Source: a virus | Virus record (IMG/VR): IMGVR_UViG_3300025154_000064 | Span: 1-64,000 of that record | Direction: 5' to 3' (one strand) | DNA length: 64,000 nucleotides | Shown here: positions 1,504 to 43,847 of the stretch, piece by piece | How positions within the stretch are numbered: the stretch's first letter is position 1 | Layout of the letters: each line of letters opens with the position of its first letter | Program-made: the position numbers and the translations under genes | The notes under the pieces: generated by a model | The model's input: the letters and a program-made list of their open reading frames with translations, nothing else | Databases searched by the model: none | Told to the model about the DNA's origin: nothing

Positions 1504-1540
1504 AACAAAAGTGGCCGCCGGACAACTACACAGCGGCCAC
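1504..1540 (-). terminator. Rho-independent terminator ending the leftward structured transcript
   Basis: GTGGCCGC/GCGGCCAC stem followed on the minus strand by TTTTGTT. Confidence 0.7.
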
Positions 1541-2360
1541 TCTAAATTTTCCAGTAGGATATTTTCCATCGATATTTTCCAAACGGAAACGTTATATGTA
1601 GGGCCAACATTTCAGGTTTAATGCCGTTCAGCGAAGTCCTTTAGCGCACGCGCCACCTTCACCTCACACCCGCCACTTAACAACCAGTACCGCGCAAACA
1701 CGCAACAGTACGGGCAGTCGGCCTTGATTCGGTTGGCCGGCAACAGCGCCGTCACCACCCCGACAAGCTTCAACCTATATCTGGCCCAAACGTCACCGTT
1801 CAGTATGTATCGGGAAAATACCCAATGCGAGTTATGCACGTCGCAGTGCCTCTCATGCCTTGGCAGACTATCGGCTTACGAGTTGCCGGTGGGACTCAAG
1901 GGCGTTGCCGCCTTCCCCACCTGTCAAGCACACTGATGTCGCTCACCGTGTCAAGCGCTTGTTGTCTTTTACGATGCACTTGCAAGGCAAGAAATCATCA
2001 ACCGCTAAGTGCCAATCTTGCATGGCAGGGCCTATGGCAGTCGGATACCATAAGCTTTTGTGGACTTGATTGTTGCCGTCATCGCCTTTCGGCTCTGGGA
2101 TTTGATGCCAGAAGTACGCAGCAGCACGGTCATGGCATCAGTGGCCATGCTGCCGGTGGGTGTGACTAACCAGTGGTTACCGGGCACCATATTGCGGCGG
2201 GTTAGGCCATAGTGCTGCCGGACCAGTTCGGCCAGTCGTCTTTGGTGTCGCGTATCGACCGGTGGAGTCGCCGCAAAGGGCGAGCAGGTCGGGCGATACG
2301 TAACATGTTACAGGATAATATGTAACCGAAAACGGTAACATGCTATCCTTTAGCATGTTA
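1541..2360 (-). ncRNA. Candidate large structured non-coding RNA
   Basis: No RBS-supported long ORF; dense nested hairpins, GNRA tetraloops and G-U pairs that work on the minus strand; bounded by promoter-like repeats and a terminator. Confidence 0.55.
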
Positions 2361-2498
2361 TTTAGATACCGGCGGCGACCAATAGCCCAAAACCGGTATT
2401 GATACCGGTGTTGTCTCAAACGGTAGGTAAGGGCGGTTGAACAGCACGATTGAGCGAGTCCTGCAAATCCGGCAAAGCATTCGGGCTAATAACATCAT
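2358..2498 (-). CDS. Possible 46-aa leader peptide
   Basis: AAGGAG RBS upstream of ATGATG (MMLLARMLCRICR...); no recognised homology. Confidence 0.3.
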   Translation of the reverse strand: MMLLARMLCRICRTRSIVLFNRPYLPFETTPVSIPVLGYWSPPVSK

Positions 2499-2536
2499 TT
2501 TTTTTTGAACTCCTTTTTGGTTTGTCGTTTTTGTTG

Positions 2537-2669
2537 GCTTACACTCTATAGGGACGTTAAAAGCAGGTTTTTGTGGCATCGTAAAAACTTTTTTTTATTA
2601 GTTGTACCTAACAGCAAAAAACCGCTGCTTACACTATATAGGGACGCTAAAAAGGTCTTTTTGTGGCAT
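2537..2669 (-). promoter_or_regulatory. Two 43-bp direct repeats, tandem alternative-sigma-like promoters
   Basis: 2537-2579 and 2627-2669 are 36/43 identical with mismatches clustered in the spacer; minus strand reads ATGCCACAAAAA-N5-TTTTARCGTCCCTATA. Confidence 0.6.
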
Positions 2670-2741
2670 TTTTTTAAAAATATTTTATCGAATTTAAATA
2701 ATATGTTATAGCATATTTGTTAAAAATACGGATAAAACGTG

Positions 2742-2771
2742 TTGACTATGATTCAATTTTATATATAAGGT
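2742..2771 (+). promoter_or_regulatory. Sigma70-like promoter of the sigma gene with an overlapping operator-like site
   Basis: TTGACT-18 nt-TAAGGT; GATTCA ATTT TATATA at 2750-2765. Confidence 0.5.
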
Positions 2772-2825
2772 AGCTCATACGGTATGTATTTTTTAACTAA
2801 CTCATTATTTGAAAGGGGATTAAAA

Positions 2826-3629
2826 ATGAAAAAAAGAATCAGTGAAGTATTAGCAATTTACAACGCACGCATGCAGCGGGCACGTCTATCGGACAATGAG
2901 AACATAGAGGCATACATGGATGCCATGAGTGAGGCATGGGTTCAGGTAGTTGAAACAAACTGCGATGTGCTTGACGCAATCCGGGAAAAGTTTGGTCTGG
3001 AAGATGATAAGTCGGCTTTTAGCCGATTTGTAAAGAGAATCACGAATAGCAAGAAAAAGCAGGAAACACGGTTAGCAAAACATGAGTGCCTTTCGATTGA
3101 TAGCACTTTTAGGAATACTAAAGGTGAAAGCTACACTATCGAAGGTGCCGACTATCGGCAAGAAAGAAATACCCACCATAATGAAGTGATAGAACATATT
3201 GAATCACTCTTGAAAGAATCTGACAAGCCGATTTTTGAAATGTATCACATCAAAGAATTAACACGATCTCAAATAGCAGGTATCACAGGCAAAGATAGAG
3301 AAACGATAACACGACGGTTAGCAGTGATAGCCACAAAAATCAATGGTTCGGGATTGCGTGACATTCTTGATAGCAAGTTGAGTGAGAATATCGGCGAGAT
3401 TACCGGCGCCAAACACCATACCGAACAAACCTACGATATGGACCCAAGCGAGTGCAAACGGATTGACGTTGCGGACCACAAGTCGGCGACGTTCAATCCA
3501 CCGAACGATGTATCCTATGCAAGCAAGCTAAGCATTACAGTACCCACTAAAAAACGTGATGTTGACGGTGTCAGTGTTTTAGGCGCTATCAGGTGCGCTG
3601 ATAACGGGTATCGCCGTATGGTTGAGTAA
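2826..3629 (+). CDS. ECF-like RNA polymerase sigma factor with a C-terminal extension
   Basis: Region-2-like DAMSEAWV helix; region-4 HTH LKESDKPIFEMYHIKELTRSQIAGITGKDRETITRRL; AAGGGG RBS. Confidence 0.7.
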   Translation: MKKRISEVLAIYNARMQRARLSDNENIEAYMDAMSEAWVQVVETNCDVLDAIREKFGLEDDKSAFSRFVKRITNSKKKQETRLAKHECLSIDSTFRNTKGESYTIEGADYRQERNTHHNEVIEHIESLLKESDKPIFEMYHIKELTRSQIAGITGKDRETITRRLAVIATKINGSGLRDILDSKLSENIGEITGAKHHTEQTYDMDPSECKRIDVADHKSATFNPPNDVSYASKLSITVPTKKRDVDGVSVLGAIRCADNGYRRMVE

Positions 3630-3649
3630 CTATCACTAACCAACCATTA

Positions 3650-3689
3650 AAAGCCCCTATGCCGTATGGTGTAGGGGCTTTTTTTGTTT
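3650..3689 (+). terminator. Rho-independent terminator
   Basis: AAAGCCCCTATGCC gtat GGTGTAGGGGCTTT followed by a T tract. Confidence 0.85.
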
Positions 3690-3942
3690 GTGCTATCTGA
3701 TTTAAGAACGATAATTCGGGTAATTATTCCCCACCAATAAAGCAAGCGGGGAATAATTACCCACATGTTGCAGTGTTGCAACACAGTCGCAAAAATGCGA
3801 CTATCCTTTAAGGATATATGTCCAAAAAGGATACACCACTTGACTCTGCGCGTGCCTATCGCGTGCTATCGTATATGATAGTTTACTGAGAGTCAAACAG
3901 GCTAACCGACAAACTAACCGACAAGGAGGAAACAAACAAGCC

Positions 3943-3968
3943 GAACGAACGAACGAACGAACGAACGA
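3943..3968. repeat. (GAAC)n tetranucleotide microsatellite in a palindrome-rich intergenic region
   Basis: GAACGAACGAACGAACGAACGAACGA read directly. Confidence 0.9.
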
Positions 3969-4185
3969 GACAAGCCAAGCCGACACGATACCGGATTATA
4001 CGCTATAATCCGGTATCGGCGAGCGTTTGAACCAGCTATAAGCCTGCTATCAGCCTGCTATCAAGTATCCCCCCCCCTCACTTTATCTTGACACCCACCC
4101 ACCCGCTTTATGGGGAACGGGTGGTAGCCGCATTTTTTTTTCAGGTTTTTCGGAATAAAGCTTTTTTTAAAATTATTCGAAAAAA

Positions 4186-4228
4186 AAGATAAAATTATCT
4201 TGCGCTATCTATAAAAATGAATTATGTC
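4186..4228 (+). promoter_or_regulatory. Promoter of the morphogenesis arm with tandem 16-bp operators
   Basis: AAGATA AAAT TATCTT (4186) overlapping TTGCGC; TCTATA AAAA TGAATT (4208). Confidence 0.55.
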
Positions 4229-4265
4229 GAACAAAAGTGTCTTTTTCTTATTCGGAGTGCCGGCC

Positions 4266-4439
4266 ATGGACTGGTTCAACCTTGAAACGTTCACCATAAT
4301 CGCCTCATTGATATCGGCCATAGGCGCCGTGACACTTCCGGTCCTGATCCGCCTTTACCCTGGCGCCAGATGGCTGAAGGCGATTTATGCCATAGGCCGG
4401 GTTATCCTGCCCATTTTAACGAGGAAGAAACCTAAATGA
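4266..4439 (+). CDS. Small membrane protein, holin candidate
   Basis: GGAG RBS; hydrophobic helix, amphipathic segment and basic C-terminus RKKPK. Confidence 0.5.
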   Translation: MDWFNLETFTIIASLISAIGAVTLPVLIRLYPGARWLKAIYAIGRVILPILTRKKPK

Positions 4440-4750
4440 CTGGCCCGACATTCAAACTGGTTTTTGATGCTCCTGTCAAGGCAAAGCGTCCTCGTAAGAA
4501 CCGAAACTGTTCTGGGCTCGAGAAGGACCACATTATCGTTAGGGCCTTCAAGGTTTATTATCTATTCAGAGAATGTGGTTATGTGACTACGCGGGATTTA
4601 ATGAAACACACCGGGGTTAACATGGTCACTGCGCAGCAATATTTAACAGCGCTTTTAAAGGCCGGTTTTACACGTAAGCTCGCAGGCCGGCGCCGTGGGC
4701 GAGACCTTGAAAAATACGTTCTTGTGAGGAAGCCTATCGATGATCTGTGA
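4436..4750 (+). CDS. Winged-HTH DNA-binding protein
   Basis: VTTRDLMKHTGVNMVTAQQYLTALLKAGF HTH pattern. Confidence 0.65.
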   Translation: MTGPTFKLVFDAPVKAKRPRKNRNCSGLEKDHIIVRAFKVYYLFRECGYVTTRDLMKHTGVNMVTAQQYLTALLKAGFTRKLAGRRRGRDLEKYVLVRKPIDDL

Positions 4751-5006
4751 AGAGAAAGAGATCGCCGGCACACTGTACCGGTACCATCCTGACGAAGATA
4801 GCCCGATGTTTACCGCGAGTTGGATAGTCACGCTGGACGGCGAGATCAAAGCGTTTATGTGCATCAAGCCGGACAGGGCTTTTGCATTTGCCTTTGGTAG
4901 CTGGGTAAATAGTTACCCGGGAAAGCTGAAGCTGACCACGGCGACAAAGTCGGTAAAGAAAGTCATGAAACAATTTGGGTTTGTGGAGATGGAAAGGTGC
5001 CGTTAA
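4740..5006 (+). CDS. Hypothetical protein, paralog of 6336..6596
   Basis: Shares GTLxRYHP, SWI, EIKxFM and FGFVE with 6336..6596. Confidence 0.7.
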   Translation: MICEEKEIAGTLYRYHPDEDSPMFTASWIVTLDGEIKAFMCIKPDRAFAFAFGSWVNSYPGKLKLTTATKSVKKVMKQFGFVEMERCR

Positions 5007-5560
5007 ACAGGCAATTTGTTGGTGAGTTCCAGATATCAAAGGGTAACGTGGAAAACGTTACTGTTAATCTATGGGACGCTGTAAGAAAGTGCAAGGGGTC
5101 GAGTTGTGTTCTTGCTGATAGATGTGCTTACGCTGATTCAAAAAAAGATCCTGTAGAGGTTGAGCATTTACCATGCAGGGTTGAGCGAAGATATCTTGTT
5201 CTTGCTCTTGAACCGTATATAGAATTGGTAAAAGTTGTTAATGATCAGAGTCTTATGAACTTCATCGGACTGCACCTGGTGCCGTTATATCTGGATCTGT
5301 GCCAGCTTAAGATGGAGAAGATGAAGATAAAGAGCATAACCTATATAGACAAGAAGGGCGAAAAGAAAATTGATCCGCTTTTTGATGAGGTACGGAAGAC
5401 GCATAGGGAGATAATGTCCCTGTGCAAAGCTTTTGGACTTAATGACTTAGCGAAAAAAGCCGGCTTCTTGAGACTGGGGGGCCGTGGTTCGGTCATTGAC
5501 CCAGAGCTTCAGATGGACGGTGATGGTGACGCTTACGAAGAGATGGCTAAGGGGGGATAA
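4997..5560 (+). CDS. Probable terminase small subunit (P27-like) with a Cys-rich N-terminus
   Basis: KGEKKIDPLF...IMSLCKAFGL resembles the P27 TerS NP...LGL motif; lies upstream of TerL. Confidence 0.55.
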   Translation: MPLNRQFVGEFQISKGNVENVTVNLWDAVRKCKGSSCVLADRCAYADSKKDPVEVEHLPCRVERRYLVLALEPYIELVKVVNDQSLMNFIGLHLVPLYLDLCQLKMEKMKIKSITYIDKKGEKKIDPLFDEVRKTHREIMSLCKAFGLNDLAKKAGFLRLGGRGSVIDPELQMDGDGDAYEEMAKGG

Positions 5561-5997
5561 TGGCTACTTGGTTGAATGGGAATGCTGGTGTGTATCGGGT
5601 AGAGAATTTGGATGGTAACGTGGTTGACGTGCTGCCCGGGGGCACGGTTGAGTCGACGAGCGATTTGTCTGGGGATGGTTTCACGAATTCTGATAGCGGT
5701 GTTGTTTATTCCGGCAGTGCTGTGAATGTATCCGGTTTGGCTGCTGACTGGGTTTTCCCAAGGGTTGGAAATTATTTTGATAGCCTGCAGTTTAACCCTG
5801 GCGCAATATCTGACAGATTGATTGTGCGGGATGGTTCTGCAACGGGTGATATTATTTTTGACTCGAAGGCATCGCTTGATGGTACGCCAATGGCAAGAGC
5901 CTTTGGCGGACAATTTTTTAAACCCTATATTAAACTTTCTGAGTGTGTCCTTTCTGCTGGTTACCTGGTAATTTTTATTATCGATAGGAGTAAATAA
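5560..5997 (+). CDS. Hypothetical beta-rich, probably virion protein
   Basis: Coupled to the upstream gene; G/S/V/D-rich. Confidence 0.55.
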   Translation: MATWLNGNAGVYRVENLDGNVVDVLPGGTVESTSDLSGDGFTNSDSGVVYSGSAVNVSGLAADWVFPRVGNYFDSLQFNPGAISDRLIVRDGSATGDIIFDSKASLDGTPMARAFGGQFFKPYIKLSECVLSAGYLVIFIIDRSK

Positions 5998-6940: not shown

Positions 6941-8305
6941 ATGGTCGAAATGGGGTTGGATTTAGGGCTTGGCCTTGGTGGAGGTGGTGGAGTTTTCTCT
7001 GCTGAATATGGCGTCGCATGGAACCAGACAACGGATGCTTACACTCGGCTTGGGTACGCCCCGTTTGTTGCAACGGCATTGGGTGTCAAGCCCACTGATT
7101 ATCTATTCCCGTTTTCCACGCGCCGATGTGTGGTCTCGGATGCTGGAGTGGTCCAATACTACTTATCTCCAACGGATAGCACGAAAAAAGCTGATGGCAG
7201 TTCTGCGGGTTTGACTGGCACAGACGGTCAAGTTATGGTGGAGATATCTGCCAAATATATTAAATATTCTTGGGTAGATCCGGTTCACTCCTGGTGGATA
7301 TCAAACGTTGCTTTACCTGGATATACGCTCCACCCTGCGTTTTCTTCGGCATCTGGTAAAGTCTATGTCGGAGCATATGAGGGCTATATCACAGGCGGGA
7401 AGCTCACCTCGATATCCGGTGTGCTGCCAACCGTGAGCCAAACCAGGGCGCAGTTCAGGGCAGCGGCGGCGGCACGGGGCGCGGGATGGCATCAGCAATC
7501 TTTCTGGATCGCGGATCTGCTGCAACGACTATATGTCATTGAATATGCCGATCTTGATTCTCAGGCCATGTTAGGTAGGGGGATTGATCAATATTCGATT
7601 TGGCCTGGAACGCCGCAAGCTCTGACAGGCAATACAAATGCAATCGGTAACGCATCGGGTAGCAACTCGGCAGCTGTACTGGTTTGGGCCGCTGCAACCG
7701 CAAAAACCAGCGGCCAGCTTGTAACACCGACAGTGGCAAACAATTATACGTACCGCTGCACCACTGGAGGCACCACGGGGGGCAGCCAGCCGACATGGCC
7801 CACCACGATCGGCGCTACTGTTGCAGATGGCAGCGTGGTATGGACCTGTGTACGGATAGGGCAATATGTGAGCTATCGGGGCGTGGAAAATCTATTCGGC
7901 CATATCTGGAGATTCGTTGATGGTATCAATATCCACAATTCAGCAGCTAACCGTTCACGCGCCTACGTTTGTGCTGATCCAGCCAGTTTTGCGGACGATA
8001 CTGAAACAAATTATTCGCTGGCCGGCATTCTGGCAGAGATGGATGGATATGCGCGGAATCTGGCGGCAACAGCTCTTGGTTTGTTTCTGCCAGGTGGCAC
8101 ATCTGGCGGCAGCTCTGCCACAGGGCTCGCGGACTATTATTACACCTATTTCGATAATGGCAATGACAGCGGGTGGCGGGTCTGTCGGCTTGGCGGGTAT
8201 GCGTCTAACGGTCTCGGTGCGGGCGCGTTCGTTTGGGATTCGTATAGCGGCTCTTCGGCTGCGAGTTCGGATATCGGCGGGCGGCTCTGCTTTACAAAAA
8301 CGTAA
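6941..8305 (+). CDS. Receptor-binding/fibre protein with a C-type-lectin (Mtd-like) C-terminus and CBM-like insert; DGR-target-like
   Basis: HPAF...YVGAYEG, YRGVENLFGHIWRFVDG and GG..xNG..AG.F......S......IGGRLCF motifs; the last 40 codons are adenine-depleted. Confidence 0.75.
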   Translation: MVEMGLDLGLGLGGGGGVFSAEYGVAWNQTTDAYTRLGYAPFVATALGVKPTDYLFPFSTRRCVVSDAGVVQYYLSPTDSTKKADGSSAGLTGTDGQVMVEISAKYIKYSWVDPVHSWWISNVALPGYTLHPAFSSASGKVYVGAYEGYITGGKLTSISGVLPTVSQTRAQFRAAAAARGAGWHQQSFWIADLLQRLYVIEYADLDSQAMLGRGIDQYSIWPGTPQALTGNTNAIGNASGSNSAAVLVWAAATAKTSGQLVTPTVANNYTYRCTTGGTTGGSQPTWPTTIGATVADGSVVWTCVRIGQYVSYRGVENLFGHIWRFVDGINIHNSAANRSRAYVCADPASFADDTETNYSLAGILAEMDGYARNLAATALGLFLPGGTSGGSSATGLADYYYTYFDNGNDSGWRVCRLGGYASNGLGAGAFVWDSYSGSSAASSDIGGRLCFTKT

Positions 8306-42751: not shown

Positions 42752-43111
42752 TCAGTTATCTGTTTTTTTTCTGTAATCCGCTCTCGCCTTTTTGCACGCT
42801 TCGCACCGGCACCGATGATTTACGTATCCAGATATTGTTCCATGCTTTATTGGCCTTCTTCTGAGAAGTCCATGCAATTTGTCGTGGCACGACTTGCAAA
42901 GGGGAACACATTTCGAAAGTTCCATATCCAGCCTTGATTCTTCCCATGACCAAATCTTATGAGACTCTTTTGACTCTTGGTCAATATGATGAATTTCAAT
43001 ATTTTGGTCTGACCAACAAAAAACGCATGGTCCAAAATTTTTTAACTTGGCCGCTTTTCGAGCCTTAATCCAATCTCTTTGGTACTGTCTTTTTTGTTCT
43101 ATGTTTATCAT
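42752..43111 (-). CDS. HNH endonuclease
   Basis: CVFC, EIHHID, KCVPLCKSCH; C-terminal HGT..Y..H.CRC..C. Confidence 0.85.
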   Translation of the reverse strand: MINIEQKRQYQRDWIKARKAAKLKNFGPCVFCWSDQNIEIHHIDQESKESHKIWSWEESRLDMELSKCVPLCKSCHDKLHGLLRRRPIKHGTISGYVNHRCRCEACKKARADYRKKTDN

Positions 43112-43139
43112 TTTTTTTGTGTGTCTCCTATAAAAAAAA

Positions 43140-43185
43140 TGGTCAAGGTTCCGCAGAGTCCATTATGGCTTCCGAACCTTGACCA
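43140..43185. terminator. Bidirectional terminator-like hairpin between attP and the HNH gene
   Basis: TGGTCAAGGTTC...GAACCTTGACCA flanked by A tracts. Confidence 0.6.
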
Positions 43186-43288
43186 AAAAATAAAATAATC
43201 AGGCGCGCCAGGATGGTTACAGGATAGAATCCGTCACCATCCTGTAACCATATTAAATGTTGACAACGCCTGATTTTATTTGTAAAAA

Positions 43289-43312
43289 TGGCGGAGGCGC
43301 ATGGGAATCGAA
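43289..43312 (-). other. attP core = 3' 24 nt of tRNA-Sec (selC)
   Basis: Minus strand TTCGATT CCCAT GCGCCTCC G CCA = T-loop, 5-nt T-stem, 8-nt acceptor strand, G73, CCA; the 5' part of the tRNA is absent; lies downstream of the integrase. Confidence 0.85.
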
Positions 43313-43433
43313 ATCAACCGCTAAGTCAATTTTTCTTAATAATTTCAAGCATGTTTTTTTAGAGCTTGTCACTGTATTTTGCGATCTGTTTGTTTTTATT
43401 ATATTTATTTTGGGTTACCATATGGTTGCGGTC

Positions 43434-43847
43434 CTATTCACGCGGGTTTGCGCCGTCACCATCTGCCACCACCTCATAGTTGTAATCTTTGCAGGCATAT
43501 CGGTTCGCCACAACCTCCTCACGGGTAAAGAGATCTCTCACCCATTCACTATCAAACCGAAACCCGCTAACCGGATTCACATCACCGACCTGCGCTTCCT
43601 CCCATTCTTTCGTTAATGGATGCTCAGGGGTGTTGTGTTGTGCCGGGTACCAATCATTCCGTTTGCATATGCGCTTGACTTTATCTCCAAAATAGATTTC
43701 ATTCCCGAACATATCGACTTCGCCAGTCCACATTTTCGGTTCTGAGCAGAACTCTTCGGAGAATTTATAAAACATGTCTGAGATATCGCGGGGTGTTTGA
43801 GCGTAAAAATCTTTCCAGTCCTTCTTCATTTGCGCTTTAAATTTCAT
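43434..43847 (-). CDS. YopX-like hypothetical protein
   Basis: WTGEVDMFGNEIYFGDKV resembles the YopX TG..D..G.EIYEGD motif. Confidence 0.6.
   Translation of the reverse strand: MKFKAQMKKDWKDFYAQTPRDISDMFYKFSEEFCSEPKMWTGEVDMFGNEIYFGDKVKRICKRNDWYPAQHNTPEHPLTKEWEEAQVGDVNPVSGFRFDSEWVRDLFTREEVVANRYACKDYNYEVVADGDGANPRE

Follow-up and report, generated by a model that had tools for sequence, protein, structure and literature searches.

In the phage genome described here, a gene-free stretch separates a block of small leftward genes from a sigma-like gene that points rightward, and the question is what this DNA does if it does not encode protein. An earlier note on the same DNA had proposed that positions 1504-2530 form a large structured RNA on the minus strand, with a transcription unit of its own. 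The genome is a single contig of 88,974 nt, and the window, i.e. the whole stretch of DNA that was analysed, is its first 64 kb. The assembly begins within a run of 21 T, and since the two contig ends share an overlap of ~130 nt, it is circular. The genome encodes a terminase, a portal-like protein, a head protease, a major head protein, a tail protein, a helicase, a primase-polymerase, a PhoH-like protein and a tyrosine integrase. This gene set indicates a temperate tailed phage. The stretch was present in public groundwater metagenome runs, and a relative of it was present in one wastewater run. The phage is rather isolated, as the best terminase identity in IMG/VR was 40% (5 loci) and the sigma-like protein had a single homologue (P0033, 53% identity) among 5.8 billion clusters. 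A tRNA search with ARAGORN was negative for the window and for the complete 88,974-nt genome. The two neighbours of the stretch are as follows.

Positions 1436-1080, minus strand: the 118-aa gene, left neighbour, belonging to a PHROG family without an assigned role.
Positions 2826-3629, plus strand: the sigma-like gene, right neighbour, matching phrog_1740 (E=1.2e-6) and, weakly, Sigma70_r4_2.

Coding potential was scored with a second-order Markov model of period 3, for which 40 long ORFs from the same genome served as the training set; true genes gave 0.057±0.031 with a 5th percentile of 0.006. No coding signal was detected in any of the six frames over 1441-2520, where the scores of -0.074 to +0.007 lay at about the 5th percentile of true genes or lower; the six-frame scores over 1441-2760 were also at or under that percentile. 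The longest open stretch was 162 codons on the plus strand, a length reached by 9% of dinucleotide shuffles, and both the stop counts and the longest open stretch were at the level expected by chance from shuffles (P=0.09 and 0.7). None of the five ORFs within the stretch matched a Pfam or PHROG family. The 73-aa ORF had no relatives among 5.8 billion clusters and the 114-aa ORF no matches among 1.84 billion representatives. The stretch is non-coding, and the earlier note's statement that it holds no convincing gene was borne out by the six-frame scores, the ORF lengths and the searches for ORF families and relatives, which were all negative.

A recoded or hidden gene was ruled out, since all three kinds of stop codon occur in every frame. 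A plus-strand frame that is open but for TGA was likewise rejected as a recoded gene, because TGA terminates 19 of the 40 long ORFs. Stop usage over these ORFs was TAG 2, TGA 19 and TAA 19. One further ORF had been suggested as a possible leader ORF.

Positions 2498-2358, minus strand: a 46-codon ORF with GGAG at 2513-2510, 11 nt before the ATG at 2498.

The GGAG is present as a potential ribosome-binding site, yet the ORF showed no coding signal and no Pfam family.

The relative from the wastewater run is a 3.9-kb contig that aligned in the pieces 38-157, 155-647, 736-1045 and then 1510-2239. One check proposed in the earlier note was whether homologues conserve a reading frame. They do not in this case: deletions of 1 nt at 1570, 1699 and 2056 in the relative disrupt the three longest ORFs that the conserved block contains in full, namely 1618-1839(-), 1825-2169(+) and the end of 2032-2190(-). 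This result also bears on the idea that small protein genes, e.g. at 2498-2358 (46 aa), 2190-2032 (52 aa) and 1839-1618 (73 aa), are the functional content of the stretch. Public collections do list 1618-1839(-) and 2032-2190(-) as genes called by gene callers, and the 46-codon ORF carries its GGAG upstream. However, the called ORFs are confined to contigs of this same phage (clusters of 2 and 1 members) without relatives or family, the coding score is at the non-coding level, and the 1-nt deletions of the relative fall within 1618-1839 and 2032-2190. Small protein genes are thus a very unlikely explanation.

Although it keeps no frame, the block at 1510-2239 was well conserved. Its identity to the relative was ~94%: over 730 nt there were 41 substitutions (5.6%) and 7 gap letters, whereas the divergence was 10.3% (155-647, 51 substitutions) and 11.3% in the two leftward pieces that carry genes, and 8.4-12.8% across 3993-5655. 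In genes 163-357 and 371-604, 24 of the 34 listed substitutions were at third codon positions. Third positions were therefore changed at least 24 times in 143, compared with 41 in 730 for the block (Fisher p=2.9e-5), and changes in the block were at least 3-fold rarer than at the third positions of codons in the adjacent genes. The gene count is a minimum, as the list covered 35 of the 51 substitutions in 155-647. First and second codon positions, with 10 changes in 286 among the listed substitutions, were not different from the block (p=0.2). These values suggest that the block is constrained about as strongly as first and second codon positions.

The relative also informs on the extent of the unit. 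Beyond 2239, nothing could be aligned at a level of at least 80% over 2240-3650, and only short pieces near 3651-3688 and 3802-3859 were found. Of the proposed extent of 1504-2530, the core at 1510-2239 is therefore conserved in the single relative, but 2240-2530 is not alignable there. On the left side, the relative skips 1046-1509, with 3 letters in place of 464 nt, so that 1510 joins 1045 and the 118-aa gene is missing.

Several other features were seen around the stretch. The 118-aa gene and its ribosome-binding region (1046-1509) look like a moron-type insertion, and 64 IMG/VR loci of unrelated phages encode members of this protein family. Positions 605-1079 had a weak coding score in all frames and were ~89% conserved with many indels in the relative; they hold a possible 44-codon ORF (819-685) behind AAGGA, and 647-736 diverged at equal length. 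The relative also has 1,797 extra letters at 4430-4435, just ahead of the gene for an HTH protein (4436-4750).

The low divergence of the block could stem from a recent mosaic exchange instead of selection. Such an exchange is part of a different explanation, in which the stretch is non-coding DNA without RNA function, either a control, recombination or replication module or a decaying remnant, and in which exchange lowers the divergence while composition and chance account for the folding described below. Mosaicism is indeed visible at this locus, as the relative lacks the 118-aa gene and carries replaced or diverged DNA in place of 2240-3650. On the other hand, the non-coding piece 38-157 was also little diverged (5 changes in 120), and at least 17% of the third positions of the coding sequence between it and the block were changed. 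This pattern of little-changed non-coding pieces and more diverged third positions argues against exchange, and selection fits it better than two separate exchanges would. A pseudogene, moreover, would be expected to diverge no slower than third codon positions.

The folding of the minus strand was then considered in four parts.

Positions 1545-1830, minus strand: the 3' domain, in which a branched interior, hairpin 1711-1687 included, is enclosed by long-range helices.
Positions 1831-2065, minus strand: the central domain, with hairpins 2055-2030, 2026-2011, 2000-1934 (three stacked helices), 1921-1888 (GCAA-capped) and 1845-1826.
Positions 2066-2239, minus strand: the 5' part of the conserved core, with hairpins 2237-2164, 2155-2119 and 2112-2094 plus the GAAA hairpin 2093-2084.
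Positions 2240-2530, minus strand: the variable 5' leader, with a branched hairpin, a near-palindromic hairpin, an ACCGGU hairpin and the 46-codon ORF.

The predicted folding energy of 1504-2245 on the minus strand was -290.3 kcal/mol, compared with -263.7±7.0 for shuffles (z=-3.82, none of 20 as stable), whereas the plus strand was indistinguishable from its shuffles (z=-0.01, 11 of 20 as stable). With the terminator excluded (1545-2239, 100 shuffles), z was -3.21 on the minus strand (0/100) and +0.40 on the plus strand. Each of the three parts of the core behaved in the same way with 200 shuffles: the 3' domain gave z=-4.01 on the minus strand (0/200 as stable) and -1.48 on the plus strand (15/200), the central domain -2.52 (2/200) and -0.01 (92/200), and the part from 2066 to ~2239-2245 -1.98 (8/200) and -0.19 (80/200). 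The comparison with dinucleotide shuffles that the earlier note had proposed thus came out in favour of the minus strand (z -3.2 to -3.8), with all three sub-domains in agreement.

As controls, 18 windows of the same length, i.e. 36 strand-windows, were folded, and their z ranged from +1.11 to -5.17. The core's stability by itself is not exceptional, because 4 of the 36 strand-windows reached -4.0 or lower. That these strand-windows fold equally well or better is in favour of a DNA element without RNA function, as are the nearby iteron-like repeats and palindromes (3718-4063), which mark a DNA-level control region. A DNA element, however, should fold alike on both strands. The low controls 43001-43742 (of the window) and 74501-75242 (of the genome) do so, with z near -4 to -5 for either strand, and so does 2200-2500, but the excess folding of the core is restricted to the minus strand in all three parts. 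The strand difference of the core was ~3.6-3.8, compared with a maximum of 2.49 among the 18 control windows. Non-coding DNA without RNA function is accordingly somewhat unlikely in our judgement. Control window 43001-43742 spans the attP and integrase region.

By the thermodynamic model, the core folds beyond chance as a minus-strand RNA only, and the strand-specific excess is predicted from G-U pairing in RNA, not from a DNA palindrome. The leader differed in this respect. It folds comparably on either strand, with z=-4.5 (minus) and -5.7 (plus) for 2200-2399, and over 2200-2500, which contains a 60-nt near-palindrome, the plus-strand fold was at least as good as the minus-strand fold. The folding claimed for 1504-2530 as a whole was consequently confirmed for the core on the minus strand, but 2240-2530 has no strand preference.

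All the hairpins, stems, the multibranch helix, the terminator and the repeats listed in the earlier note were found in the DNA. The smaller elements of the candidate RNA are given here.

Positions 2093-2084, minus strand: GAAA hairpin GCCGAAAGGC, seen in the sequence.
Within hairpin 1921-1888, minus strand: GGCG-GCAA-CGCC, seen in the sequence.
Positions 1800-1789, minus strand: AACG-GUGA-CGUU, with a stem extendable to 7 bp.
Positions 2055-2030, minus strand: hairpin of 10 bp including 2 G-U pairs, from sequence and predicted fold.
Positions 2300-2251, minus strand: CGUAUCG/CGAUACG helix closing a branched hairpin, from sequence and predicted fold.
Positions 2360-2301, minus strand: 60-nt near-palindromic hairpin containing the 2336-2360 stem, from sequence and predicted fold.
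Positions 2409-2392, minus strand: ACCGGU hairpin, in the variable 5' leader.

Three hairpins capped by GNRA loops are present as described, but their number is at chance level (2.0 expected, P=0.32). The most striking element of the predicted fold is the closure of the 3' domain by ~39 bp of stacked helices, in which 1823-1773 would pair with 1617-1557, including 5 G-U pairs, with helix probabilities of 0.97-0.99. Hairpin 1845-1826 abuts the boundary of the central domain (1831-2065). The deletions of the relative were also compared with the predicted loops: two of the three fall on unpaired positions, which is no better than chance, and the one at 1570 removes a base predicted to be paired. 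In the predicted fold, 64% of the bases are paired.

At the left end of the unit lies a strong terminator.

Positions 1541-1503, minus strand: intrinsic terminator, an 11-bp GC-rich helix (1541-1531/1520-1510) followed by UUUUGUU.

This helix has a probability of 0.99, and together with the U run it has the GC hairpin and U tract of a Rho-independent terminator. A terminator scan with loops of up to 8 nt missed it, as its loop is longer. The claim that the unit ends at a terminator was therefore correct, and the left edge of the conserved block (1510) coincides exactly with it. The relative keeps the terminator immediately ahead of the next leftward genes despite missing the 118-aa gene.

At the right end, the earlier note had described promoter-like tandem repeats.

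Positions 2537-2598 and 2627-2688, no strand assigned: two 62-nt direct repeats with 74% identity, 90-nt spacing and a bipartite conserved motif.

The bipartite motif occurs nowhere in the 88,974-nt genome except in these two repeats. A scan for sigma-70 promoters gave 4 sites where 3.2 were expected, i.e. chance level, and the repeats are at most candidate promoters or operators. T7-type promoters were considered and rejected, since the motif containing TATAGGGA was found genome-wide only in the two repeats and at one unrelated site. The large proteins scanned included no single-subunit RNA polymerase; the one of 1000 aa has BNR and lectin-like domains. On the other side of the sigma-like gene, a gene-free stretch of ~0.8 kb contains two perfect palindromes with 15-bp arms (3718-3762 and 3986-4018), and the short tandem repeats at 3718-4063 comprise CTAACCGACAAA x2, (CGAA)x6.8 and an 11-nt unit x2.6. 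Such elements resemble iterons or operators and may mark an origin, a partition site or a control region.

The position of the terminator raises another possibility, namely that the RNA is a cis-acting leader or 3' UTR of a leftward early transcript, with the 46-codon ORF at the 5' end, in which the terminator at 1541-1503 gates read-through by attenuation or antitermination. Consistent with this, the terminator lies directly upstream of leftward genes in both phages, with 3 letters joining 1510 to 1045 in the relative, GGAG precedes the ATG at 2498 by 11 nt, and the palindromes and hairpins at 2360-2251 resemble control sites. Known attenuators and put-like elements, however, need far less than ~730 nt, and a constrained multi-domain structure of this size exceeds their needs. 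Neither a coding signal nor a family was found for the 46-codon ORF, the region that holds it falls below the 80% conservation level in the relative, and no antiterminator gene was identified. We regard a cis-acting leader or 3' UTR as unlikely.

Whether the RNA belongs to a known family was examined with Infernal cmscan against Rfam. The whole window gave no matches at gathering thresholds. Over 1300-2900 with E up to 10, there were 8 weak matches, the best being mir-745, whose 26 bits fell short of the 62-bit cut-off. A known RNA family was ruled out, the models of GOLLD, ROOL, OLE, HEARO and raiA all being unmatched, and the statement that the RNA could be assigned to no known class stands on this search.

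Homologues were equally scarce. Blastn of the region against 50,697 phage records found no relatives. Nhmmer found none in the 68 loci reached through the 118-aa protein and its family, nor in the 78 loci obtained with the tail protein. In total, 151 loci were searched for the region and yielded no further relatives. As a query for further loci, the 77-aa neighbour gave 1 weak locus, the sigma-like protein none, and its homologue P0033 none in viral contigs. The 118-aa protein gave none in genomes and one unrelated short contig in metagenomes. A degenerate hairpin pattern gave 2 chance matches without homology, and no internal paralogue of the region was found. Any class would thus rest on two phages.

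The integration site was also used as a guide. Exact copies of the 24-nt attP core at 43289-43312, which resembles a tRNA 3' end, occur at 65 loci in GTDB genomes that span many phyla, among them Desulfomonile relatives, Acidobacteriota, Planctomycetota and Nitrospinota. Since the identity stops on the tRNA side, the core does not name the host. Tblastn of the phage proteins against these 65 loci gave no match, the RNA region was absent from 5 genomes carrying the core, and the terminase was absent from 120 genomes of one phylum. As a separate observation on the tail gene, a search of the whole genome for a DGR template repeat of its variable-looking end (8171-8290) found none, the best ungapped match being 53/120.

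Taken together, a functional structured RNA of the minus strand, stand-alone or leader, is the best reading of the locus, and the product of the ~0.75-1 kb stretch is most likely a folded non-coding RNA outside the known families. Specifically, we propose that the minus strand from ~2239 to 1504, probably with a variable 5' extension towards 2530, is a stand-alone structured non-coding RNA of ~0.75-1 kb, and we give this reading a probability of roughly 45%. It is supported because the stretch is non-coding, constrained, predicted to fold beyond chance on the minus strand, closed by a terminator and without an Rfam family. Of the large stand-alone RNA originally proposed, the non-coding nature, the strand-specific folding, the terminator and the constrained core held up, but the conserved unit is ~730 nt and not 1 kb. 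A new large phage RNA with a core of ~730 nt is plausible and moderately supported, not proven.

If the RNA is stand-alone, its transcription would proceed leftward, starting in the divergent early control region next to the sigma-like gene. A stable multi-domain RNA would then result from the terminator hairpin together with the 39-bp helix closing the 3' domain, and by analogy with the proposals for GOLLD and ROOL this RNA may work in trans while the phage develops, whether as a scaffold, as a particle or by binding protein. It is also possible, though on the doubtful side, that the RNA is the first known representative of a new and rare class of large, ornate RNAs in groundwater and wastewater temperate phages, located beside a sigma-like gene, which may form an RNA-only or RNA-protein particle.

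Large RNAs such as OLE and HEARO are associated with OLE-associated and IscB/TnpB-type genes. Like OLE, HEARO and raiA, the candidate is large, ORF-free and ornate in its predicted fold. It differs from them in that it matched none of their Rfam models, and neither IscB/TnpB-type nor OLE-associated genes were found beside it by Pfam and PHROG searches.

The closest comparison is with GOLLD and ROOL, described in PMC12286853 as phage or prophage RNAs of unknown function that are often near tRNA islands and were recently shown to form RNA-only cages. The candidate resembles GOLLD in being phage-borne, ~0.8 kb, ORF-free and multi-domain in its predicted fold. According to the same source, the 3' region of GOLLD is universally conserved and the 5' region less so; in the candidate, conservation covers the 3' 730 nt but not the ~290 nt on the 5' side, which, with one relative, is a resemblance of layout and not homology. 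Unlike GOLLD, which is often near tRNA islands (PMC12286853), the candidate lies in a genome without any tRNA, it has no Rfam model match even at E up to 10, and its structure is a predicted one. With ROOL it shares being a large, phage-borne RNA of predicted structure, but it has neither the Rfam match nor the tRNA neighbourhood. The candidate is not a member of GOLLD or ROOL and would be a separate family of the same general kind.

Large structured phage RNAs such as GOLLD and ROOL are few, and their function is given as unknown in PMC12286853, so that every independent new family helps to reveal what large phage RNAs share. The evidence on the candidate consists of two phages, thermodynamics and one divergence comparison; its value is limited for now by the scarcity of relatives, and we consider the finding real and moderately interesting. 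The candidate has no tRNA context of the GOLLD and ROOL type; its temperate phage carries it within the early control region, with a sigma-like gene as neighbour. This setting points to a different one from that of GOLLD and ROOL and to a testable link with phage transcription control.
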